Shown here one piece after another: positions 289-62,233 of a stretch of DNA of 64,000 bases. The stretch is from assembly GCA_041752595.1 (NCBI GenBank), contig JBGSWE010000003.1, positions 13,720-77,719 of the forward strand. The letters are read 5' to 3'. Position 1 is the stretch's first letter; the number at the start of each line of letters is the position of its first letter. Below the pieces are notes generated by a model that saw only the letters and a list, made by a program, of their open reading frames with translations, was not told the origin of the DNA and did not search any database. This stretch comes from Candidatus Saccharimonadales bacterium (lineage in GTDB: Bacteria > Patescibacteriota > Saccharimonadia > Saccharimonadales > JACDBH01). Both the position numbers and the translations under genes were made by a program.

Positions 289-296
289 TGGTCGCC

Positions 297-345
297 CCTC
301 AGAAAGAGTTTACATGCGTTAAAGCACTTCTTCCTCTTTCTGAGG
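297..345 (-). repeat. perfect 12-bp hairpin
   Basis: CCTCAGAAAGAG (297-308) and CTCTTTCTGAGG (334-345) are exact reverse complements with a 25-nt loop. Confidence 0.6.
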
Positions 346-354
346 AGCTAGGGT

Positions 355-442
355 GTCCCAAGTGTTGTCAGGCGGCCCTGAGCACTTTGTTGGGACTGTC
401 CCAAGTGTTGTCGGGTGGCCCCGGAACACTTTTGGTTGGGAC
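355..442 (-). repeat. two tandem copies of a GC-rich hairpin unit (about 42-45 nt each)
   Basis: Units at 355-396 and 398-442 both start GTCCCAAGTGTTGTC and end (T)TGGGAC. The GTCCCAA/TTGGGAC arms pair. They begin 3 nt past the stop of the minus-strand ORF 445-843. Confidence 0.65.
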
Positions 443-444
443 GA

Positions 445-843
445 TCATTCGTAGAGAGGATTCACGAATGTGAATGAATCTTCTGATGAGACGGCGCGAG
501 CGTCGAAGCTGTCTTCGGTGATGATGGCGGTCTTCTCGTCGTCTGAGAAGAGATTGGAAAGGTCGATTGCCGAAGCAAACAGGGTCTTCAGGACTTTGGT
601 GACTTGAGCTTCTGTGACATCGGGGTTCATCTCGATGATGAGCTTGGTGTCGAACAACGTGATGTCGATGATTTCACCGGAGCCTTGCAAGCCACGAGCG
701 GAAGCAAGAAGCCATATGCGTGAAGAGACGGTGTTCTTGATGTTTGCGTAGCTCAGCTGCACGATTGTGCCGTCACGAAGTTTTCGGATTTGGGTGACGA
801 CGAAGGTTGCCTCGAAACATGGAACAACGTATTCGGTCTTCAT
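445..843 (-). CDS. hypothetical protein (132 aa) in a GC-elevated cassette
   Basis: ORF track. Strong SD (TAGGAGGA) lies 6 nt upstream of the ATG at 843. No recognisable motif. Confidence 0.6.
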   Translation of the reverse strand: MKTEYVVPCFEATFVVTQIRKLRDGTIVQLSYANIKNTVSSRIWLLASARGLQGSGEIIDITLFDTKLIIEMNPDVTEAQVTKVLKTLFASAIDLSNLFSDDEKTAIITEDSFDARAVSSEDSFTFVNPLYE

Positions 844-968
844 GTGAATCCTCCTAAGGATGTGGTAAGGTGCTATCTCTGGGTTGAGATTGGTAAATAA
901 TACGCTTAAAACCGCTAAAGTTCAAGTATATAATTGCAAAAAGTATAAAAATGTTCTAAAATAGGGCT

Positions 969-9289: not shown

Positions 9290-9517
9290 ATGTTGGAAAG
9301 ATTTGAAAACGCGTGGTTTGGTCTGGTGATTTTCATCATTGCTTGGTGCATTTTCGGCATCGCAGGCTTGATTCCTTGGGATTACTCCCAAGTAGATCCA
9401 AACTGGGAATGGCATATGAATACTCATAACGCTTGGTTGGCTTGGGGACTTTTCGTCACCCTTGCTGCAACAGCTTTTGGGTTCTTTGCCTACGCCGTCA
9501 AGCGTTGGACTGACTAG
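9290..9517 (+). CDS. small two-TM membrane protein (75 aa)
   Basis: SD AAGGAGGGAGG lies upstream of the ATG at 9290. Two hydrophobic helices, Trp-rich loop. GC is higher than the flanks. Confidence 0.65.
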   Translation: MLERFENAWFGLVIFIIAWCIFGIAGLIPWDYSQVDPNWEWHMNTHNAWLAWGLFVTLAATAFGFFAYAVKRWTD

Positions 9518-9742
9518 CCAGCACTTCAATAACTCTGCCCAGAGTATAAATCTTACGCAAGTAAGAAAGTGGTTAATGGAGAAATCCATTGTCTGCAAGG
9601 GCAAGCTATCATCTGGCAATAGATAGCTTGAGCGTACGGTCTCGATGAAATGTTAGTCTAATACCTAACTATAAGTTGAGAATAAGGCGTAAGCCAAGGG
9701 GTAGTTGAGAACTATATTTTATATATTTTTCCTACTCCTCAA

Positions 9743-9798
9743 AAAACGTCAATGAATATTTTTCATTCTGATGAGTCTAATTAAAGACGAAACGTTTT
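9743..9798 (+). ncRNA. type III hammerhead ribozyme
   Basis: AAAACGU-C / AAUGAA-UAUUU-UUCAUU / CUGAUGA / GUCU-AAUUAA-AGAC / GAA / ACGUUUU. All core positions are present, with a GUC cleavage triplet (C17 = 9750) and helices I/II/III of 6/4/7 bp. Confidence 0.88.
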
Positions 9799-11032: not shown

Positions 11033-11922
11033 TTCTTAACCTTCTTTTTAGCAGGAGTTTTAGTCTTCTTAGCCTTGGGCGATTTTTTGGTCTTCTTATT
11101 GGTTAAATGTTTTCTGGCTGGTGCGGGCCGGCTAGGGATCTCATTTAGATACGCCGAAACACCCTCTAGTTGCTCATCTTCATCATTCCTGGGTTGTTCA
11201 TCACCGCCACTACGGGCTCTTTTAGGAACCTCACCTAACTTAGTTGATTCGTCATAAACAATTGATCCATCAACCACGTATAAGACTCTAGTAGCATATC
11301 TGGTTAGCTCTGGGTTGTGGGTGACCATTAGAATTGTGCTGCCAGTAGAATGCAGTTCTGCTAATAGCTCCATAACTACTTTGCTACTCAAGCTATCTAA
11401 GTTGCCAGTTGGTTCGTCCGCGATAATTAAATCTGGGTTGTTTACTAGTGCTCGTGCAATGGCCACGCGCTGGGCCTGGCCACCAGACAACGCCTTGGGA
11501 TAATAGTATTCACGGTCAGAAAGTCCTACACGTTCTAGTGCAGCTGCAGCCTGATTAAGTCTTTTAGTTCTAGACACTCCTTTGTAAGACAAGGGAAGGG
11601 CGACATTATCAAGCGCGGTTAATCTAGGCAATAAATTAAATGACTGAAAAATAAATCCAATATGATCCCTACGTGCTTTGGCCAATCTATTCGGCCTTAG
11701 TCTTGATACTACTCGGCTACTCAAGCTGTAAGTTCCATGGGTTGGACGGTCTAATAAACCGATTATATTCATAAGTGTAGATTTGCCAGAGCCGCTTGGA
11801 CCCATTATCGCAACAAATTCACCCTTAGTAACTGTTAGGCTTATTTCATCCAAAGCGACAGTGGTAGCATTACCAAATCCATACAATTTTGATACTTCTT
11901 TGAGCTCAATCACAACAGACAT
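11029..11922 (-). CDS. ABC transporter ATP-binding protein (MacB/LolD type) with a Lys-rich C-terminal tail
   Basis: Walker A GPSGSGKST, signature LSGGQAQR, Walker B LIIADEPT. Tail ...KKTKKSPKAKKTKTPAKKKVKK. 4-nt overlap with the permease gene. Confidence 0.93.
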   Translation of the reverse strand: MSVVIELKEVSKLYGFGNATTVALDEISLTVTKGEFVAIMGPSGSGKSTLMNIIGLLDRPTHGTYSLSSRVVSRLRPNRLAKARRDHIGFIFQSFNLLPRLTALDNVALPLSYKGVSRTKRLNQAAAALERVGLSDREYYYPKALSGGQAQRVAIARALVNNPDLIIADEPTGNLDSLSSKVVMELLAELHSTGSTILMVTHNPELTRYATRVLYVVDGSIVYDESTKLGEVPKRARSGGDEQPRNDEDEQLEGVSAYLNEIPSRPAPARKHLTNKKTKKSPKAKKTKTPAKKKVKK

Positions 11923-12069: not shown

Positions 12070-12159
12070 GGAGAGGTCGCCTAGTGGCCTATGGCGCCGC
12101 CTTGGAAAGGCGGTTTGGGGGCAACTCCATCGAGGGTTCGAATCCCTCTCTCTCCGCCA
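12070..12159 (+). tRNA. tRNA-Ser (anticodon GGA), long variable arm, CCA encoded
   Basis: Acceptor GGAGAGG/TCTCTCC, anticodon stem CCGCC/GGCGG with loop TTGGAAA, T-arm GAGGG-TTCGAAT-CCCTC, 18-nt variable arm, 3' GCCA. Confidence 0.9.
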
Positions 12160-12808: not shown

Positions 12809-12866
12809 TTCACTTTTCGTCTTGATCTTAGACTCATCAGCATGACAACGTAGTCATAGAAGTGAA
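12809..12866 (-). ncRNA. type III hammerhead ribozyme
   Basis: Minus strand reads UUCACUU-C / UAUGAC-UACGUU-GUCAUG / CUGAUGA / GUCU-AAGAUCA-AGAC / GAA / AAGUGAA. Full core, C17 = 12859, helices I/II/III of 6/4/7 bp. Confidence 0.88.
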
Positions 12867-12941
12867 GATAACAGACAGATAGTTTGAGGGGTTGGCGGGA
12901 GCCGAATGCCTGGTTGTCCCAAACTGACTCTGCCTGTTATC
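12867..12941 (-). other. 13-bp hairpin directly abutting the hammerhead 5' end
   Basis: Minus-strand GATAACAGGCAGA (12941-12929) pairs with TCTGTCTGTTATC (12879-12867), with one G-U pair and a 49-nt loop. No gap before helix III of the ribozyme. Confidence 0.65.
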
Positions 12942-12972
12942 CGCACTTTATCCTTTTTTGGTTTGAGGGTTT

Positions 12973-13194
12973 TTAGGCCATCATGGCTTTGATTGGTGAT
13001 TCACGGATTGGTGCACGGAACTCCTCGGCAGTAAACTCACATTTTTCATGAGTGGCGAGGCAGGCGAAATTGCACCAACATTGTCTGCGTCCATCACATC
13101 CCTCAACCAGTGCCGATCCTCGACGAATTACAATGACGCGGGCGTCACAAACGTGTGGTGACTGTGGTTTTTGTCGGCGAAACGGGAATTTCAT
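12973..13194 (-). CDS. small Cys-rich protein (73 aa)
   Basis: ORF track. Seven Cys (CDARV, GCDGRRQCWCNFAC, HEKC) suggest metal binding. GC-rich. Confidence 0.5.
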   Translation of the reverse strand: MKFPFRRQKPQSPHVCDARVIVIRRGSALVEGCDGRRQCWCNFACLATHEKCEFTAEEFRAPIRESPIKAMMA

Positions 13195-13206
13195 CGCTTC
13201 AGTTGC

Positions 13207-13476
13207 TCAGTCGACTGGGGGCTCTTCTTCATGATCATCTGCCGTTTCATCGACGTATTCACCGTTGAGCCGGTCGACGATCTCTTGCAAGAGCTCATTT
13301 GATAGGCCATCCGGCGGTACGATGATTGTACCGTTGGTGAGTACGAATTCTTCAAAGACAATTTCTCTACCCATGACATCGTTGATCAGTACATGAGCTT
13401 GTTCGATCCTGAAATCACCCTCTGCATCGAACGACAAATCATCGTCCCCATTCTGCCAGTTGATCTTCAGTTTCAT
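13207..13476 (-). CDS. small acidic protein (89 aa)
   Basis: SD AAGGAGAG precedes the ATG at 13476 (MKLKINWQNGDDD...). Acidic C-terminus (DETADDHEEEPPVD). GC-rich. Confidence 0.6.
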   Translation of the reverse strand: MKLKINWQNGDDDLSFDAEGDFRIEQAHVLINDVMGREIVFEEFVLTNGTIIVPPDGLSNELLQEIVDRLNGEYVDETADDHEEEPPVD

Positions 13477-13766
13477 ATCTCTCCTTAGCTCACTCGCCAC
13501 GGCAGGATGCCCTCTACAACTTTAGTAAAGTGTGTGTATTTGGTAACACACAAGGTGAGTAAGGAATCCAAAATAATGATTACGAACTCTTTACTAACCT
13601 TGTGCATTGATACACATTTAACTATCTATCTGCTTGTAAAATAACTACCCTAACATTCTGCTAAGGACCTAACAAGTTTAGCAATTATAGATATTTTGTC
13701 AATTTTATACTATAGTAATCCTAATTATTATATTGAACGAAGGGTGTAAGGTAGTAGACTAGAGTC

Positions 13767-21448: not shown

Positions 21449-21809
21449 AAACCTAGATCACAAAGTAGTAGAAGAATATATATTGTCGATGCCAAACGCA
21501 CGGCTAGATTACCCATTTGGCAAGGAAGCAGCTGTCTATAAAGCGGGTAATACAGGTGATGACAAAATGTTTGCTCTCATCGCAGAGGGTTCAAATCCGG
21601 TTAGGCTAAGTCTTAAATGTGATCCACAGTTAGCAAAATTACTACGCGAAAAGTATGAGACTGTTATGGAAGGCTATCACCTGAACAAAAAGCACTGGAA
21701 CACGATTTTACTCACCGGGCAGCTGCCTTGGGACGAGGTGCAGGCGTTAATTTTGCATAGTTATATTTTGGTTACTGAGGGCGAAGATGCCCACCAGCCT
21801 AAAGCTTGA
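21441..21809 (+). CDS. MmcQ/YjbR family protein
   Basis: LDYPFG...AVYK...KMFALI...LSLKCDP...GYHLNKKHWNTILL is the family pattern. Confidence 0.8.
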   Translation: MIENLDHKVVEEYILSMPNARLDYPFGKEAAVYKAGNTGDDKMFALIAEGSNPVRLSLKCDPQLAKLLREKYETVMEGYHLNKKHWNTILLTGQLPWDEVQALILHSYILVTEGEDAHQPKA

Positions 21810-22452
21810 TAGTTTTAATCAAAGGTAAAACGGCATCTCTTTGTTTATTTAAGCCGTCAGGGTACTCATCCACTCCAACAAGAGGAAATTCTATTAAGTA
21901 AGAATTTTCTGTAGTGGTAAAAGCCACATAATATGAGTAGCCATCACCTTCACCTTCTTGACCATATATTGCCGGCAAGTCATTCACGGGTGTTTTAGTA
22001 AATTTAGTATATTCACTTTCTACGACTTCTTTTTCTTGGTCAATTTCAAAGTACTGCAGCCATTTATTTTCTGATCTTTTATATAACAAATTAATACTAT
22101 ATAAATCTCCAAAATTTTTGCCCGTAAGCTTGGTGTTAACAGGTGTTGTTATCACATTAATTCTTGATGCATCCCAGTCTTTAGGGTGATAAAACTGTAC
22201 ATTACTACTTTTATACGTGTATGGTACCCAACCTTCAGGGTATGTATCATCAGCAGCTTCTTGTTTGTTTGCATCTGATTCAATACTATCATCTTTGTCA
22301 GTAGATAGTGTTGTGGCCGACGAACTGTTATCTGTATCAGAGTTGTTTTTTAGTACAAACACCCCAATTCCTGCAATAACCGCAACCACACTAACAATGA
22401 TAATTACTTCTGCTACCGCAAAGCCATTTGTATTCAATTTATTCATAAGCAT
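21799..22452 (-). CDS. type IV pilin-like protein (prepilin-type N-terminus)
   Basis: N-terminus ...NTNG|FAVAEVIIIVSVVAVIAGIGVFV has G/F cleavage with Glu at +5 and a hydrophobic helix. Confidence 0.65.
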   Translation of the reverse strand: MLMNKLNTNGFAVAEVIIIVSVVAVIAGIGVFVLKNNSDTDNSSSATTLSTDKDDSIESDANKQEAADDTYPEGWVPYTYKSSNVQFYHPKDWDASRINVITTPVNTKLTGKNFGDLYSINLLYKRSENKWLQYFEIDQEKEVVESEYTKFTKTPVNDLPAIYGQEGEGDGYSYYVAFTTTENSYLIEFPLVGVDEYPDGLNKQRDAVLPLIKTIKL

Positions 22453-22477
22453 AAGCTTAACATGAACTGATTTTTAT

Positions 22478-22592
22478 AAACACCGCAGGAGATAATGCTT
22501 TATCTACTATGGTGTTTGCGGGAGTCGGAGAAAAGGGATTGTTTAGGTGGGTGATTGAATCACTCAAATACATATCTTTTCTCCGCTCCCGC
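22478..22592 (-). other. conserved 3' module of cassette A (two hairpins)
   Basis: Hairpin I, 22518-22592: GCGGGAG...CTCCCGC base, ~17-bp stem. Hairpin II, 22478-22517: AAACACC..AGATAA-AGCA-TTATCT..GGTGTTT then TTTAT. Near-identical flanks recur at 24223-24335. Confidence 0.7.
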
Positions 22593-22605
22593 TTTAAGTT
22601 CTCTG

Positions 22606-22773
22606 TTATTGCTTCGTGAAAAGCAGTTCGTACATACACAATACGATGAGACCAATGGCCAAAAGCACAAAGGGGATCATGAGAATTTTACCCAACGTGG
22701 GGTCTATCAATGTTCCCAAGAACTGAAGTGCCAAACCCAAGAGAACGGCAACAATGAAGAGTCGTTGTTTCAT
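22606..22773 (-). CDS. small hydrophobic protein (55 aa), last gene of cassette A
   Basis: ATG at 22773, 2 nt after the upstream stop. MKQRLFIVAVLLGLALQFLGTLIDPTLGKILMIPFVLLAIGLIVLCMYELLFTKQ*. Below the ORF-track length cut-off. Confidence 0.55.
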   Translation of the reverse strand: MKQRLFIVAVLLGLALQFLGTLIDPTLGKILMIPFVLLAIGLIVLCMYELLFTKQ

Positions 22774-22775
22774 CG

Positions 22776-23018
22776 TTAGATGAAATCTCTTGGACGCAGT
22801 CTTGTTGCTTCACGAGCGAGCTTGTGATCGCTGGGTTGACCGAAGGCAAGGTCGTATACATCGCTCAGTGAGTCGACGTCGTCGTCCTCATCTGGATAAT
22901 CGCCTTCTTCTTCGTCGGTAGCCACGAGGTCTTCTTCGTAAACATGCCAGTCTTCTTCGAGCTCAGCAGAAATTCTGTTGAGCCATTCGGGATCGTCAAA
23001 CCTATCGATTGTCGTCAT
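22776..23018 (-). CDS. small highly acidic protein (80 aa)
   Basis: SD AAAGGAGCAA upstream. Asp/Glu-rich (EEDWHVYEEDLVATDEEEGDYPDEDDDVD). Confidence 0.65.
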   Translation of the reverse strand: MTTIDRFDDPEWLNRISAELEEDWHVYEEDLVATDEEEGDYPDEDDDVDSLSDVYDLAFGQPSDHKLAREATRLRPRDFI

Positions 23019-23077
23019 CTTGCTTGCTCCTTTGGGTAGGGTTTCATCGTCAGATGAGGTTGCTCAGTGTGTTGACA

Positions 23078-23458
23078 TCATCTTCTGTCCAATTCACGGT
23101 CCATTTCGATTTCCAGTGCAACACGTGCTTGCCAATCAGCGTTGCTCGCAAAAGCTTGCTTGCGCAAGGCAAGTTCGGCTTCAGCTGCTTCGATGGTGGT
23201 GAATGCACCATGGCATGAATTGACCAAGTCATTGACTGACGCGGCCCTCTCCCATCCGGTTTTGTACCGAATTTTGATCCATGGTCCATATTTTGGACTG
23301 TACTTGACACCAGGCCAACAAGAAACTTCCTCTTGAGCATCGAGGTACAAAAACTCCTCGATACCATCAGGCGCGCCTTGATAGCTGGTGATGCACCAAA
23401 CGGTGTCTCCCGGCTTGAATGTGGCCATGAACTCTTCAACGCTGTGAATTGCGGTCAT
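23078..23458 (-). CDS. hypothetical protein (126 aa)
   Basis: SD AAGGAGCAA upstream. Its ATG overlaps the upstream stop (ATGA coupling at 23455-23458). Confidence 0.65.
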   Translation of the reverse strand: MTAIHSVEEFMATFKPGDTVWCITSYQGAPDGIEEFLYLDAQEEVSCWPGVKYSPKYGPWIKIRYKTGWERAASVNDLVNSCHGAFTTIEAAEAELALRKQAFASNADWQARVALEIEMDRELDRR

Positions 23459-23766
23459 CTGCTTGCTCCTTGGTTGGTTTCGGTGGGTGTTGCGTTGCTG
23501 TTGGCGATGTCGGTCATAGCGATGACTTTCAGGTCAGCAATTCGACACTGCAAGAGATGTTGGATTTCAACGTACTTTCCAAAACGTCGCGACCATTTGA
23601 TGATCAGGTCGACAGTCCGGCCGTTGAAGTACAAGATGTCTCGTACGCGCTGATCGGGGAAGAGTGCTTCGACGAGTGCATCGACTTCTACTTCATTGCA
23701 TTGACCCAGGTCTACTGTCTGCACTTTAGTGCCGTAGGGTTTGATGTACACGCTGTACGTGGTCAT
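23455..23766 (-). CDS. hypothetical protein (103 aa)
   Basis: SD AAAGGAGCAA upstream of the ATG at 23766 (MTTYSVYIKPYG...). The longer 196-aa ORF in the track is an upstream read-through. Confidence 0.6.
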   Translation of the reverse strand: MTTYSVYIKPYGTKVQTVDLGQCNEVEVDALVEALFPDQRVRDILYFNGRTVDLIIKWSRRFGKYVEIQHLLQCRIADLKVIAMTDIANSNATPTETNQGASR

Positions 23767-23798
23767 TTCGTTTGCTCCTTTGTAGTGGTCAGGTCTTA

Positions 23799-23972
23799 TC
23801 ATTTGAAAGAAAACAAGCATACTGTCGCAAAGAACAGAAATACGTTGCCAACGGTCAAGCTGATTGCACCACCACGCAATTTCCCTTCCGAGAAGAGAAT
23901 CACGCCGAGAGCGAAATACAAGAACGCCACAAAAATACTGGCGCAAAACAAGAAGATTTCGAATCCTGACAT
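23799..23972 (-). CDS. small two-TM membrane protein (57 aa), first gene of cassette A
   Basis: SD AAGGAGCAA upstream of the ATG at 23972 (MSGFEIFLFCASIFVAFLYFALGVILF...). Confidence 0.55.
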   Translation of the reverse strand: MSGFEIFLFCASIFVAFLYFALGVILFSEGKLRGGAISLTVGNVFLFFATVCLFSFK

Positions 23973-24132
23973 TTGGTATTGCTCCTTGGTTCGGGATCTT
24001 TCGATCAGGGTGGGTTCCAGAAGTTGTAACTGGAGCACAAACCATTTACGAATAACGGTCTATATTCCAGCTACAAATTCAGCAATACCTGTCAGACTAA
24101 CAGGGTATATAACAGAGAGCTTATTAAGTTAC

Positions 24133-24196
24133 GTTTTTAGGGAGTGTTCTCACCTAAAAACCTATAAATTGTAGCATAAAAACATCAAAATGTCAA
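24133..24196 (-). promoter_or_regulatory. cassette A promoter plus 5'-terminal stem-loop
   Basis: Minus strand: TTGACA (24196-24191), 17 nt, TACAAT (24173-24168). Then hairpin GTTTTTAGGTGAG-AACA-CTCCCTAAAAAC (24161-24133). Confidence 0.7.
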
Positions 24197-24222
24197 TGTA
24201 TAAACGTACTTGTAACACTGAT

Positions 24223-24335
24223 AAACACCACAAAAGATAATAACTTATCTACTATGGTGTTTGCGGGAGTGAGGATTGAGTAAGATTGTTTTTATAAACG
24301 ATTGCTCGTTTCAATCTTTCTTTTCTCACTCCCGC
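24223..24335 (-). other. conserved 3' module of cassette B (two hairpins)
   Basis: Hairpin I, 24263-24335: GCGGGAGTGAG/CTCACTCCCGC with an inner AAACGA-GCAA-TCGTTT. Hairpin II, 24223-24262: AAACACCA..AGATAA-GTTA-TTATCT..TGGTGTTT. The 26-nt TTATCTACTATGGTGTTTGCGGGAGT is shared with cassette A. Confidence 0.7.
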
Positions 24336-24346
24336 GAAGTTTTCTG

Positions 24347-24775
24347 TTAGCCCTTGGGAACGCAACCCTCGACAACACCGTTGTCTTCGAGGATGGTGTC
24401 GATATTGGGCATCATGCTGAGTGGACCGAATTCCCAACCTCGAGTGGTGACGTCGTAGCTGTGGCAGACTTCAATGTCGCCAAACAGATCAGCACTGTCG
24501 AAGCGCCGACTCGAGATCGAGAACCAGATGTCTGCAACAGCAAGCGTAGGGCCGTCGGTGTAGACGCGGTAACTGCCGTCGCTGCCGCCGCGATCCTTGT
24601 ATTCGACGATGATCGTCCGTTCTTCGGTGTTGGTGTAGTCGAATATGAGTACGCCGATGCCGATGATCGCGACGATGATTGCCACAAACACGGGAGCGGA
24701 ACTCATGGAGTTGTCGAACCAGAAGAAGCAAACGACGAGCGTTGCGATGATGATGAGGATGACCAGGAATGGCAT
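24347..24775 (-). CDS. membrane protein (142 aa; two N-terminal TM helices plus a soluble C-domain)
   Basis: SD GGAGGG upstream of the ATG at 24775 (MPFLVILIIIATLVVCFFWF...). GC-rich. Confidence 0.6.
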   Translation of the reverse strand: MPFLVILIIIATLVVCFFWFDNSMSSAPVFVAIIVAIIGIGVLIFDYTNTEERTIIVEYKDRGGSDGSYRVYTDGPTLAVADIWFSISSRRFDSADLFGDIEVCHSYDVTTRGWEFGPLSMMPNIDTILEDNGVVEGCVPKG

Positions 24776-24978
24776 TATATTTCCCTCCAAATGGGAAACT
24801 TGCAAAGAGGACGGAATTGTCCCTAAAGGTACTTGCTACCTTTTCGAATGTTTGGGGTACAAACTTTCGAGCCGACTCTTTAATAACAATAAAGAACCGA
24901 GCTCGAAAGCTCGACACATTTAATCATCAACACCGTTTTCGCATCATATGGTACTAACAAAAAAACTTGTAAAATTGC

Positions 24979-25038
24979 GTTTCGGGAGTAATCTCACCGA
25001 AACCAATACATTGTAGCATAAAAGTGTAAAAAAGTCAA
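24979..25038 (-). promoter_or_regulatory. cassette B promoter plus 5'-terminal stem-loop
   Basis: Minus strand: TTGACT (25038-25033), 17 nt, TACAAT (25015-25010). Then hairpin GTTTCGGTGAG-ATTA-CTCCCGAAAC (25003-24979), which covaries with cassette A. Confidence 0.7.
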
Positions 25039-60547: not shown

Positions 60548-60599
60548 TTGACTAAATAACAAAAAAAGCTTAATATATAATTTAACTCTACCAGAGTTA
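60548..60599 (+). promoter_or_regulatory. cassette C promoter plus conserved 5' hairpin
   Basis: TTGACT (60548-60553), 17 nt, TAATAT (60571-60576), overlapping TATAAT. Then TAACTCT-ACC-AGAGTTA (60583-60599), identical to 61531-61547. Confidence 0.6.
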
Positions 60600-60640
60600 C
60601 AACATAGTGTTGTTCATAGTTAGTACCTTTAGGAGGATAC

Positions 60641-61252
60641 GTGAAGTTCCGTTGGACACGAGGTTTATTCCCCGTAGTTTTCATCACTCTTTTGGCGGCT
60701 TGTTCAGAAGGAGAATCAAACAGGGACACAGAACCTGCTGATACTGCAGCCGAAACAGAATCCACGCAACCCCCGCTGGGCTGTGCTGGTACTGGTCCTA
60801 TCAACAGTGACTGCTCATCAGATACTGTTCCTGATGATACTACCCCTACGGGTGGTACGCCTCTTTGGCGGTATGAAGATTGCGAAGACGCTATTGGTAG
60901 TGCCTGCACCGACACGCTATTGACCGCCTTTGCTAAGTGGGGTGAAAACATACCTTTGCTTTACGTTGATGAAGATGCGGGCTGGGAAGGTGCCTATCTT
61001 GGCGAATTTGCTGATGAGAAATACCCCGCAGAAAACTTGAATGCTCTCGTGCTTTATGCGTGCGCAGACATCGAAGCACCGTCAGCTGACGAAGATGGTG
61101 AAGAGGGTTGGTTTTCTGCACAGTTCAAGTTTTACACCAATCTTGATGCCAGCGCGAGCCATGAACTGTTTGATGCTGCAATGGAATACATCTGTCCCGA
61201 CCTCGGTTGGGTACGGGCCTACGACTACGATGGCTGGATTCCTGAACAATAA
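60641..61252 (+). CDS. acidic Cys-containing lipoprotein (203 aa), GC-rich
   Basis: SD AGGAGG, GTG start. Lipobox LLAAC. Confidence 0.65.
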   Translation: MKFRWTRGLFPVVFITLLAACSEGESNRDTEPADTAAETESTQPPLGCAGTGPINSDCSSDTVPDDTTPTGGTPLWRYEDCEDAIGSACTDTLLTAFAKWGENIPLLYVDEDAGWEGAYLGEFADEKYPAENLNALVLYACADIEAPSADEDGEEGWFSAQFKFYTNLDASASHELFDAAMEYICPDLGWVRAYDYDGWIPEQ

Positions 61253-61289
61253 GCATCTGAACAACAAGAATTCTGCGCAACTGAACACC

Positions 61290-61356
61290 TGGTAGGGGCT
61301 AATCGCTGTAGGTGGTAAATCGAGTGTGTACTCACATCTCAACTTACCACCTACAG
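61290..61356 (+). other. conserved 3' module of cassette C
   Basis: TGGTAGGGGCTAATCGC, then a 13-bp hairpin CTGTAGGTGGTAA/TTACCACCTACAG (61306-61356) with an inner GAGT..ACTC. Counterpart at 62091-62156. Confidence 0.6.
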
Positions 61357-61363
61357 CACCCCA

Positions 61364-61415
61364 TCCACCTTTTTTGTAAATATCACAATATTAAATGAAG
61401 GTGGATTTTTCTTTT
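61364..61415 (+). terminator. rho-independent terminator
   Basis: TCCACCTT (61364-61371) pairs with AAGGTGGA (61398-61405), followed by TTTTTCTTTTC. Confidence 0.6.
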
Positions 61416-61521
61416 CTTTAGAAAATAAACAGCATCTAAAATTAAAAATTATTAGTATATGATGCCAAGCTACTCAACAACGATGAGCGAGACTATTTGT
61501 AATAATGTAATTAAAATGTTA

Positions 61522-61547
61522 TATTATGCTTAACTCTACCAGAGTTA
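61522..61547 (+). promoter_or_regulatory. cassette D -10 box plus conserved 5' hairpin
   Basis: TATTAT (61522-61527), then TAACTCT-ACC-AGAGTTA (61531-61547). No convincing -35. Confidence 0.5.
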
Positions 61548-61585
61548 GCGCTACGGCGTGAGGGATGCTACTAGAAAAGGCACAG

Positions 61586-62089
61586 ATGTCCACTTTTGCT
61601 GGTTGTAAGTATAAGTTGCTTGCGGTTGTTGCAGGCCTTGCGGTTGTCTTCGCGGCATGCGGAGGGAACAATGAAGAACCGGTTGAAACAGAAAGTACTT
61701 CGGAAACTGGCACTTCTGGAGGTTCGGGTTCAGTTGTAATCATTAAGGGGAAACCATTCACCTGCGATAAGGTTATTGGTGGAGAATGTAATCCAGAAAT
61801 TCAGGCCGTGTTTGACAGGTACAAAGAGAACATCGATGTATTTGCGAACAAGGGTGGTATGGGTCCATACTTCAACAACAGCTCTTATGAGGATGTGGCC
61901 TTTGCTGGGTTGGTTGCATGCACGTTCCTCGATAGGGGTGAGAATGCATACATTGATTTCATGTTGACCGACTCCGCCTTCTCTGAACTACAAAGCATCG
62001 AGATCCTACCGGTTTGGTTTGAGGCTCAAGATTCATTGTGCCCCAGTGGTTCAATGGTGGCTCCTGGCGACTTTGCACCAACGCCGTAA
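61586..62089 (+). CDS. Cys-containing lipoprotein (167 aa from ATG 61586), GC-rich
   Basis: Lipobox VFAAC. Cys placement parallels the 60641 protein. The ORF track start 61565 is an alternative. Confidence 0.6.
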   Translation: MSTFAGCKYKLLAVVAGLAVVFAACGGNNEEPVETESTSETGTSGGSGSVVIIKGKPFTCDKVIGGECNPEIQAVFDRYKENIDVFANKGGMGPYFNNSSYEDVAFAGLVACTFLDRGENAYIDFMLTDSAFSELQSIEILPVWFEAQDSLCPSGSMVAPGDFAPTP

Positions 62090-62090
62090 A

Positions 62091-62156
62091 TGGTAGGGGT
62101 AATCGCCGGAAGTGGCAAGATGGTTGAGTACATCACTCATAAATCCTGCCACTTCC
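62091..62156 (+). other. conserved 3' module of cassette D
   Basis: TGGTAGGGGTAATCGC, then a 10-bp hairpin GGAAGTGGCA/TGCCACTTCC (62108-62156) with an inner GAGT..ACTC. The stem sequence differs from cassette C but pairing is kept. Confidence 0.6.
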
Positions 62157-62233
62157 GAGCGAACCCACCCACCGCAATCGCTCTTAAGCGTTAAATATTG
62201 CAGTGGGTTTTTACTTTTACGACAATTAGCATA

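Follow-up and report, generated by a model that had tools for sequence, protein, structure and literature searches.

How do two adjacent bacterial transcription units come to have nearly the same sequences at both ends, while the genes enclosed by these ends have nothing in common? The question is raised by a locus in a 64,000-nucleotide stretch of Candidatus Saccharimonadales DNA (contig JBGSWE010000003.1, positions 13,720 to 77,719; the whole stretch is called the window below). Its minus strand contains two tandem cassettes, B (25038->24221) and A (24196->22476), with 26 nt between them. They have a common frame, which consists of a near-consensus extended -10 promoter, a 5'-terminal stem-loop and a 3' module of two hairpins, whereas their payloads are unrelated. 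A sequence-only reading of the locus described this frame and suggested that foreign, perhaps phage-derived, genes are slotted into it. The explanation that we favour, with a probability of roughly 55%, is that A and B are moron-like, horizontally acquired transcription units set in a reusable frame that closes the mRNA into a loop; on the best reading, they were inserted at a hot spot between a bla-like and an MmcQ/YjbR-like gene of a Candidatus Saccharibacteria chromosome. It draws on the anatomy of the cassettes, their recurrence at other loci, an insertion polymorphism, the foreign composition of the payload and covariation of the structure on the sense strand.

The elements of the two frames are the following (HP1 and HP2 are the two 3' hairpins; boxL and boxR are the strands of a long-range helix).

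25010..25038, minus strand: promoter of cassette B, TTGACT-17-TACAAT, TG before the -10 box, 10/12 match
24979..25003, minus strand: 5'-terminal stem-loop of cassette B, GUUUCGG-U-GAG AUUA CUC CCGAAAC, free energy -13.2 kcal/mol
24953..24968, minus strand: boxL of cassette B (AAGUUUUUUUGUUAGU), 5' strand of the long-range helix; the full-length minimum free energy (MFE) structure has 15 pairs here, probability 0.73-1.0
24776..24952, minus strand: payload-specific leader of B, kept in the orthologue at locus L140; identity to L140 about 75% over the whole cassette
24337..24351, minus strand: boxR of cassette B (GCUAACAGAAAACUU), 3' strand of the long-range helix, includes the stop codon UAA
24263..24335, minus strand: HP1 of cassette B, long hairpin; base GCGGGAG/CUCCCGC conserved, interior variable
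24221..24262, minus strand: HP2 of cassette B, AAACACC..AGAUAA loop UUAUCU..GGUGUUU, then AU; abuts HP1, no U-tract
24168..24196, minus strand: promoter of cassette A, TTGACA-17-TACAAT, TG before the -10 box, 11/12 match
24133..24161, minus strand: 5'-terminal stem-loop of cassette A, free energy -13.6 kcal/mol
24109..24123, minus strand: boxL of cassette A (UAAGCUCUCUGUUAU), 15 nt, 93% complementary to 22595-22609; 14 MFE pairs, probability 0.86-1.0 over about 1500 nt
22595..22609, minus strand: boxR of cassette A (AUAACAGAGAACUUA), includes the stop codon of A5
22518..22592, minus strand: HP1 of cassette A, a helix found by folding and in the alignment
22476..22517, minus strand: HP2 of cassette A (plus AU), a helix found by folding and in the alignment

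The two promoters, reported by the sequence-only reading as TTGAC(A/T)-17-TACAAT, are indeed present, and both are TG-extended. Scored by consensus match only (out of 12), they are among the three best promoter-like sites in a 5-kb scan, the other 10/12 site being 26364-26335. Both 5' stem-loops begin 6 nt past the -10 box, at the distance given before, and the compensatory change noted in the 5' stem extends to four further copies in other genomes. The 3' module was also described correctly for both cassettes: the last stop codon is followed by AACAGA(A/G)AACTT, by HP1 of 73-75 nt and by the abutting HP2 of 40 nt. The modules, counted as boxR, HP1 and HP2, occupy 24351-24223 in B and 22609-22478 in A, and their stability as a whole is about -45 to -58 kcal/mol. 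A terminator scan did not flag HP1 or HP2, and both hairpins are devoid of a U-tract; thus, they are not canonical terminators. The arms of HP2 are kept in sequence as well as in structure (ACCAnAGnAGA / UCUynUGyGGU).

When the cassettes are compared with each other, the 3' sides show 88% identity over 50 nt, and the 5' sides show 83% over 41 nt (79% over 75 nt by BLAST). A block of 26 nt is identical in both. One of its copies lies at 24245-24270, as previously placed, and the other at 22500-22525, so that the coordinates given earlier (22497-22522) were off by 3. Exactly two copies of the block are present in 64 kb, versus none expected from 100 shuffles, and the motif GGTGAG-N4-CTCCC is restricted to two sites within the window, those of A and B. 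The 26-nt spacing of the cassettes and the spot counts of G+C (32 and 19) were reproduced. Five independent Logan assemblies reproduce the junctions with 100% identity and jointly cover the bla-like gene, B, A, a pilin-like open reading frame (ORF) and the MmcQ-like gene. Every junction, including that from B to A, is bridged by at least one Logan contig, which excludes an assembly chimera.

A separate observation concerns the leader of B (24776-24952, about 180 nt; 585-752 in L140). It contains a terminator-like hairpin with a U-run at 24915-24896, a complementary segment downstream, and a UUUCCC/GGGAAA hairpin that overlaps the Shine-Dalgarno sequence. As far as the predicted folds indicate, this conserved leader may be an attenuator or a translational switch.

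The 3' box in front of the hairpins is more than a conserved spacer. It pairs with the 5' leader in a long-range helix that covaries: AACAGARAACTT is the reverse complement of boxL, which is located about 10 nt downstream of the 5' stem-loop, and boxR includes the stop codon UAA in A, B and two further copies. Covariation was assessed in six type-1 sequences from four genomes. In the full-length predicted transcripts (770-1700 nt), a boxL:boxR helix of 11-15 pairs is part of the MFE structure in 6/6 type-1 cassettes. It spans 560-1500 nt, with a pairing probability of mostly 0.8-1.0 that is lower at the helix ends. The complete set of 5' stem-loop, boxL:boxR helix, HP1 and HP2 also folds in all six.

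RNAalifold, applied to a plain, unbiased MAFFT alignment, recovered all four helices, with compensatory change in 20 of the 48 pairs. The share of paired cells is 89.8%, compared with 43-54% when the partners are slid by 1-3 columns; in the HP2 helix it is 97.8%. None of 500 shuffles reached the observed percentage of paired cells, the double-change pairs or cells, or the covariation score; the count of further pair types was reached by 28 of the 500. The long-range helix itself contains four pairs with double changes (U-A/C-G twice; C-G/U-A/U-G; A-U/G-C), among them changes between the orthologous cassettes at the window (W-B), L004 and L140. The cognate boxL/boxR duplexes have z-scores of -3.9 to -5.3 relative to shuffles. 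All six wobbles of the long-range helix place U in boxL and G in boxR, and in the three well-aligned helices (5' stem-loop, long-range helix, HP2) 14 G.U cells were counted versus 2 A.C cells. This excess indicates that the folding strand is the sense strand, i.e., the mRNA.

Native genes of the window's genome behave differently. In energy, their cognate 5'/3' duplexes cannot be told from non-cognate ones (p = 0.79), and in 23 native pseudo-transcripts the longest contiguous long-range helix has a median of 5 and a maximum of 10 pairs. The idea that 5'/3' pairing is a general trait of native mRNAs in this genome was rejected by these duplex-energy and helix-length controls.

The wobble count bears on the possibility that the frame is an intergenic DNA repeat resembling a miniature inverted-repeat transposable element (MITE). 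Such an element of about 240 bp would run boxR-HP1-HP2-promoter-stem-loop-boxL, with the boxes as terminal inverted repeats, a transposase supplied in trans and the genes merely lying between copies. Tandem arrays do contain a contiguous boxR...boxL block (24351->24109 in the window, 9062->9271 in L005) with 12-15-nt inverted repeats at its ends, and Correia-type MITEs carry promoters, terminators and RNase III substrates. However, strand-specific wobbles favour sense-RNA pairing over a DNA repeat. In the single cassettes of L004 and L140 the payload lies inside the unit, between a promoter half upstream of it and a hairpin half downstream, and there are no partner halves; a payload-free full element was not found. 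In the conserved unit, the boxL/boxR inverted repeats are internal and not at the extreme ends, and no transposase or recombinase was found among the genes scanned within 10-15 kb in the window, L004 and L005. We consider a MITE-like origin improbable.

Another possibility arises from the pairing itself. The nearest mechanistic precedent for a covarying 5'/3' clamp of an mRNA is the tac/fbi stem of hok (plasmid R1 family), in which the 5' leader pairs over a long distance with the 3' untranslated end, with covariation, to give a compact closed form; it is the classic bacterial case (PMC9841398). The cassettes might likewise be hok-like type I toxin-antitoxin or killer/immunity loci, whose fold-back would keep the full-length mRNA inert until 3' processing. 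Several payload products are small and hydrophobic, namely A1 (57 aa), A5 (55 aa) and two L005 proteins of 85 aa and 59 aa, and A1 and A5 fit the hydrophobic hok toxin of about 50 aa by size and hydrophobicity. Nevertheless, the cassette helix hides no ribosome-binding site, the first Shine-Dalgarno sequence being 100-200 nt downstream of boxL, and no antisense RNA is evident (no convincing antisense promoter; the best plus-strand site scores 9/12). The helix encloses 0.6-1.5 kb and has an additional 5' stem-loop and two 3' hairpins beside it, and PADLOC returned no match. The payloads extend up to 1.4 kb and five ORFs, and the product of B, with 142 aa, has a beta-rich domain after two transmembrane (TM) helices. 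We therefore see little room for the toxin explanation, which appears very improbable.

Pairing of flanking sequences as a stem and stabilisation of the message by 3' hairpins are also known from the leader/trailer stalks of rRNA operons and the RNase III sites of T7 early mRNAs. Unlike these, the cassettes have no rRNA or phage context, their helix is only 12-15 bp long, and its cleavage is hypothetical.

The payload genes enclosed by the frames are listed below.

24347..24775, minus strand: ORF B, 142 aa; two TM helices at the N-terminus, then a conserved beta domain of about 95 aa with two invariant Cys; GC content at third codon positions (GC3) 0.73
22606..23972, minus strand: payload of cassette A, five small ORFs with AAGGAG ribosome-binding sites
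23799-23972, minus strand: A1, 57 aa, predicted TM
23455-23766, minus strand: A2, 103 aa
23078-23458, minus strand: A3, 126 aa
22776-23018, minus strand: A4, 80 aa, acidic
22606-22773, minus strand: A5, 55 aa, predicted TM

A2 and A3 overlap at ATGA, and the other ORFs of cassette A are 2-57 nt apart. Small, closely spaced ORFs with strong AAGGAG sites look like phage accessory gene content. No similarity between the payloads of A and B can be detected, in agreement with the sequence-only reading, and its statement that the payload is richer in GC also holds (0.48-0.55 versus 0.40-0.42 in the flanks). The GC3 of ORF B is 0.73, against 0.43-0.44 in the neighbouring genes. In the homologues of B and the second ORF of locus L139 it is 0.61-0.93, in host genes 0.43-0.69 and in the ORFs of cassette A 0.50-0.60.

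Protein B matches phrog_301 ("secreted protein", 2e-13). Eight homologues with 56-69% identity were found among 5.8 billion proteins, none with a functional name given by the source. A tblastn search revealed distant relatives in phages of Mycobacterium, Arthrobacter, Microbacterium, Bacillus, Pseudomonas and Variovorax, and two IMG/VR contigs with 66-69% GC encode relatives without the frame. The AlphaFold model of protein B is of moderate confidence (pLDDT 68.5); its top Foldseek/BFVD matches are TM proteins of Gordonia and Streptomyces phages, which are weak (TM-scores 0.35-0.44) and can serve as a hint at the fold, not as an assignment. As for A1-A5 and the other payloads, nothing significant was found in Pfam, PHROGs and PADLOC. 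A3 and the second L139 ORF have no homologue but the query in the 5.8 billion proteins; tblastn against phages gave nothing for A2 and two further payloads.

A 17-mer gene junction, TCATCT(A/G)ACGATGAAAC, is repeated in cassette A at 22767-22783 and 23041-23057 (stop codon + CG + ATG AAA C). The copy at 23041-23057 opens a mini-ORF of 10 codons whose stop overlaps the A4 start. The repeat looks like a scar of modular recombination at gene boundaries.

Tandem small, unrelated and often ORFan genes, each with a structured element behind it whose ends are conserved and whose centre varies, in arrays that differ between strains, are also features of integrons and of clusters of attC sites lacking integron-integrases (CALINs). 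If the cassettes were of this kind, single-stranded DNA would fold at HP1 and HP2 to form attC-like recombination sites, and site-specific recombination would have enlarged the array; the conserved base and variable interior of the 3' element, together with the retention of the HP2 arms in sequence and structure, could be read in this way. Their ends, however, do not fit. HP1 has GCGGGAG/CTCCCGC at its base, HP2 has ACCAnAGnAGA/TCTynTGyGGT as its arms, and no R''/R' core (RYYYAAC / GTTRRRY) is present at the hairpin ends. An integrase is not found nearby. Most integron cassettes lack a promoter, whereas each of these carries a strong one, and the structural signal is that of sense RNA. Moreover, the attC model leaves the conserved 5' module without a role. 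Of the explanations considered here, this one seems to us the least probable.

The insertion itself can be followed by comparison with related loci. The flanking bla-like protein matches only metagenome-assembled genomes (MAGs) of Candidatus Saccharibacteria, with 40-75% identity. At L008, L012, L013 and L015, the bla-like gene is followed by the convergent MmcQ/YjbR-like gene at a distance of 18-90 bp. In the window, 3.2 kb separate the two genes and contain B, A and a pilin-like ORF rich in AT. L140 represents this locus in a different species (amino-acid identity 76% for bla and 82% for MmcQ); it carries the orthologue of cassette B alone, and its HP2 extends into the MmcQ stop codon. The check for presence or absence proposed earlier thus yields three states, empty, B only, and B + A + pilin-like ORF, which point to an insertion hot spot. 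The third component of the insert is as follows.

21799..22452, minus strand: pilin-like ORF, 217 aa, G|FAVAE prepilin-like N-terminus; AT-rich, GC 0.35

This ORF is absent from all related loci fetched and has only weak PHROG matches, to Sie-like and pilin families. The neighbours in the window are housekeeping genes (ArgRS, DnaG, RpoD, CapA-like, VanY, Orn). A scan of flanking genes, covering window ORFs selected from about 13 kb upstream and about 8 kb downstream, revealed no integrase or transposase domain, and no recombinase domain appears in the precomputed Pfam lists of the called genes in L004 and L005. A target-site duplication was not seen at four junction pairs. A recombinase-linked array was rejected as a candidate, given that no such gene is among the flanking genes scanned. 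Of the earlier proposal of foreign or phage-derived modules, the foreign codon composition and the membership of B in a phage protein family stood up; the slotting, or a route of movement, is a supposition, as no recombinase was found nearby and no target duplication could be made out.

The same frame also occurs at non-homologous loci, by TerC in L004 (a 656-kb JGI contig) and after ValRS in L005. The latter contains two tandem framed cassettes, and B is the third gene of the second one. Copies thus exist beyond this locus, in other Saccharibacteria genomes, so that the idea survives one refuting condition set by the sequence-only reading, confinement to this one place. Reuse of the frame around unrelated payloads, as surmised earlier, is seen in A versus B and in the two tandem cassettes of L005, while the B family occurs in different frame variants. 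Homologues of B in other frame sequences, behind consensus promoters, were found after Map in L006 and L139 and in L141 and L142. Tandem neighbours have the frame or the leader motif in common in L005 and L142; the two L139 cassettes do not. At these further loci with different frame sequences, 5'/3' pairing was found wherever both ends are readable. L139-c1 and L006 form 29-32 long-range pairs, and the second, convergent cassette of L004 (L004-rev) has a perfect 14-bp helix between its 5' and 3' untranslated regions, of unrelated sequence and with a probability of 1.0.

Several side observations were made at these loci. A GC-rich (0.60) ORF of 40 codons at L005 8195-8317, after valS and ahead of the first framed cassette, has no frame of its own and may be a remnant of an older payload. 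In L142 (40-70 and 440-480) and L143, two successive consensus promoters, each followed by the leader motif CCTTGAGAAGC, precede the homologue of B. In L004, an intergenic element of about 250-330 nt is present in inverted copies (9470-9791 and 11335-11664; 75% identical) that flank the two convergent cassettes, each ending at a cassette promoter, and HP2 is followed by a third, partial copy that has a canonical terminator. A copy with 71% identity is located after polA in another MAG (L015 2173-2416). The element has no Rfam, tRNA or tmRNA match; integration at a tmRNA or tRNA gene was rejected for L004, where no such gene is found.

Searches of larger collections yielded little. Two 3' patterns gave no matches in IMG/VR viral contigs, and the GTDB representative genome contigs contained no frame match. 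The single match in JGI metagenomes (L007), an HP2-like hairpin behind an unrelated promoter, was judged to be chance. With a looser 5' pattern, none of the at least 120 viral-contig matches listed fits the full 5' or 3' profile (nhmmer), and a blastn search of the inter-cassette block against phages and plasmids returned no match. In Rfam, the only match for the window at the gathering threshold is a tRNA at 12070-12156; for the hairpins, only sub-threshold noise of the miRNA type appeared at a permissive threshold; and nothing was found in L004, L005, L006, L139 and L140. The frame recurs across several related lineages and, as far as the literature searches and Rfam show, has not been described, in line with what the sequence-only reading stated.

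In addition to the two reported before, the window contains further cassettes of the same design (C, E and F) and a GC-rich unit, D, that was compared with them.

12860..13702, minus strand: candidate cassette C, diverged; promoter TTGACA-16-TGCTAAACT (TG-extended), two payload ORFs with GC 0.48-0.51
13666-13648, minus strand: 5' stem-loop of cassette C, then the linker UUUUACAAG
13635-13620 with 12884-12870, minus strand: boxL and boxR of cassette C, 15 bp, 751 nt apart
60548..61410, plus strand: cassette E, second frame family; promoter 60548-60576
60582-60599, plus strand: 5' block of cassette E, TTAACTCTACCAGAGTTA, 18 nt, right after the promoter
60641-61252, plus strand: lipoprotein-like ORF of cassette E
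61290-61306, plus strand: 3' block of cassette E, TGGTAGGGGCTAATCGC, complementary to the 5' block
61305-61410, plus strand: two hairpins of cassette E
61490..62212, plus strand: cassette F, tandem to E; same 18-nt 5' block at 61530-61547, same 3' block at 62091-62106, then two hairpins
290-925, minus strand: unit D, GC-rich single gene; promoter TTGAAC-17-TATTAT, 132-aa ORF at 843-445, GC3 0.64

The long-range helix of cassette C, which is located near the tRNA mentioned above, is present in the MFE structure with a probability of 0.44; a competing local hairpin has 0.56. In E and F, the common 5' block CUCUACCAG is complementary to the common 3' block CUGGUAGGG over 8-9 bp, and in E the 9-bp long-range helix has a pairing probability of 0.86-0.99. 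The 3' block near the stop codon reads TGGTAGGGG(C)TAATCGC, and in F it begins 1 nt past the stop codon. The payloads of E and F are lipoprotein-like, 24% identical and native-like in GC3. In unit D, the ORF is followed by two direct repeats of about 45 nt, each folding as a hairpin, and by one more hairpin; a convincing long-range 5'/3' helix is missing, and D was rejected as a member of the closed-loop group.

A simpler explanation would be a plain local tandem duplication of a promoter/terminator region, with the inner genes diverged or replaced, the hairpins being plain terminators and the complementarity incidental. The frames of A and B (88% over 50 nt, 26 nt identical) are closer to each other than B is to its L140 orthologue, which fits recent copying or gene conversion and suggests copying or homogenisation within the genome. 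Promoter and 5' stem-loop modules are also found ahead of the native-looking lipoprotein genes of E and F. Matus-Garcia, Nijveen and van Passel (2012) reportedly described promoters propagated within one genome, as near-identical upstream regulatory segments before non-homologous genes; in the cassettes, unlike in that case, a matching 3' module complementary to the promoter-side module travels along. A local duplication does not explain why this frame is found around different payloads at non-homologous loci of other genomes, nor why boxL and boxR change together between orthologous cassettes (U-A to C-G at two positions). The pairing principle recurs with unrelated sequences (L004-rev, C, E/F, L139, L006) and not in native genes, and the hairpins have no U-tracts. 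Duplication alone thus seems unlikely, and the integron, MITE and plain-duplication readings each fail on the features tested.

This leaves the moron-like units in a closed-loop frame as the explanation to be weighed. Morons are defined by their own promoter, their own terminator and a deviating GC content (PMC3594210). Like phage morons of the HK97/HK022 type, the cassettes are independent transcription units with their own promoter (by consensus match), a 3' structure and deviating GC, inserted between conserved genes and absent from relatives, and they carry small accessory payloads, often membrane proteins. Unlike phage morons, they lie in a bacterial chromosome among housekeeping genes, with no prophage and no match of the frame in phage collections; one conserved frame is reused around unrelated payloads and across genomes; and a covarying 5'/3' closing helix is present, whereas a canonical U-tract terminator is not.

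The way such a unit might work can be outlined as follows. A foreign payload, rich in GC3 and encoding small, mostly membrane or ORFan proteins of the phage accessory kind, would be set in a host-typical AT-rich frame. The near-consensus sigma-70 promoter with its extended -10 box would provide strong transcription, and the 5' stem-loop, at or within about 2 nt of the putative transcript 5' end, might block 5'-end-dependent RNases, by analogy with the 5' stabilisers of Firmicutes and E. coli. About 10 nt further on, boxL would pair with boxR, which overlaps or directly follows the last stop codon, so that the coding region of 0.6-1.5 kb would be looped. HP1 and HP2 would stack right after this helix and protect or define the probable 3' end. 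With its ends joined in a four-helix junction, the foreign message would be stabilised and insulated, and ribosomes terminating at the last stop codon would open the junction transiently. In addition, the common frame would offer about 110 nt plus 145 nt of homology, by which incoming cassettes, taken up by natural competence, could be added beside residents or could swap payloads. Frame homology and competence together would explain the tandem arrays and the likeness of frames within a genome. Saccharibacteria are naturally competent and live as epibionts of Actinobacteria (PMC10633639).

A number of points weigh against this explanation. The transcription start sites, the 3' ends and the long-range helix in vivo are predictions, and in MFE folding the two ends of any long RNA come to lie close to each other. 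With 10 and 9 contiguous pairs, W-A and W-B do not exceed the native maximum of 10, although their runs amount to 14-15 pairs if one interruption is allowed; because these runs are within the native range, length is not decisive alone, and the excess is carried by the total helix length and the covariation. The covariation itself comes from few independent lineages, since W-B, L140 and L004 are orthologous B cassettes. Termination is unexplained, as HP1 and HP2 have no U-tract. In L004, canonical terminators are located beyond the frame, and the pilin-like ORF begins 24 nt past HP2 of A, which leaves no room for a promoter of its own; it appears to rely on read-through. The missing U-tracts, the L004 terminators and this promoterless ORF lead us to read the hairpins as structures for end protection or processing rather than as proven terminators.

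Further objections concern the origin of the cassettes. Three ORFs other than B were searched for a donor (A2, A3 and the second L139 ORF) and none came up, which means that an actinophage origin is supported for B only. McLean et al. (2020) found no strong evidence that genes had been transferred to TM7x from Actinomyces. GTDB representatives, IMG/VR, JGI metagenomes, phages and plasmids yielded no copy of the frame, which is rare or lineage-restricted. Third-codon identity between the window and L140 is 0.68 for B and 0.44 for bla, whose synonymous positions are saturated. This can be explained either by B being younger than the species split or by constraint on it, and judging from these comparisons the insert need not have come down by simple vertical inheritance.

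A more far-reaching version of the closed-loop explanation would be that Saccharibacteria possess a dedicated platform for gene installation, an integrase-free analogue of the integron, in which genes of the actinobacterial virome are placed in standardised closed-loop frames and the frame is both an expression/stability device and a recombination handle. Cassettes would then accumulate, swap payloads and spread between epibiont lineages. We regard this as a speculative and rather unlikely extension.

Saccharibacteria, like other bacteria in the candidate phyla radiation (CPR), have tiny, highly syntenic genomes, and how they gain functions and control their mRNAs is little understood. If moron-like units in a closed-loop frame are indeed what A and B represent, they would provide a concrete and repeatable entry route for foreign genes, which would arrive ready for expression at insertion hot spots. 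At least one payload family is common to phages, including phages of Actinobacteria, the phylum on which these epibionts live. The small membrane or secreted ORFans and the pilin-like protein are plausible candidate factors of epibiont-host or epibiont-phage interaction. The cassettes would also be an example of a natural bacterial mRNA with both ends clamped by a covarying helix and terminal hairpins, which is scarcely documented outside hok-type toxin mRNAs. What is new is an unusual RNA architecture on a known theme, that of the autonomous cassette or moron; the function and the mechanism of mobility are putative. Should the frame stabilise the message, it might become a portable expression part for CPR bacteria, in which genetic tools are recent.

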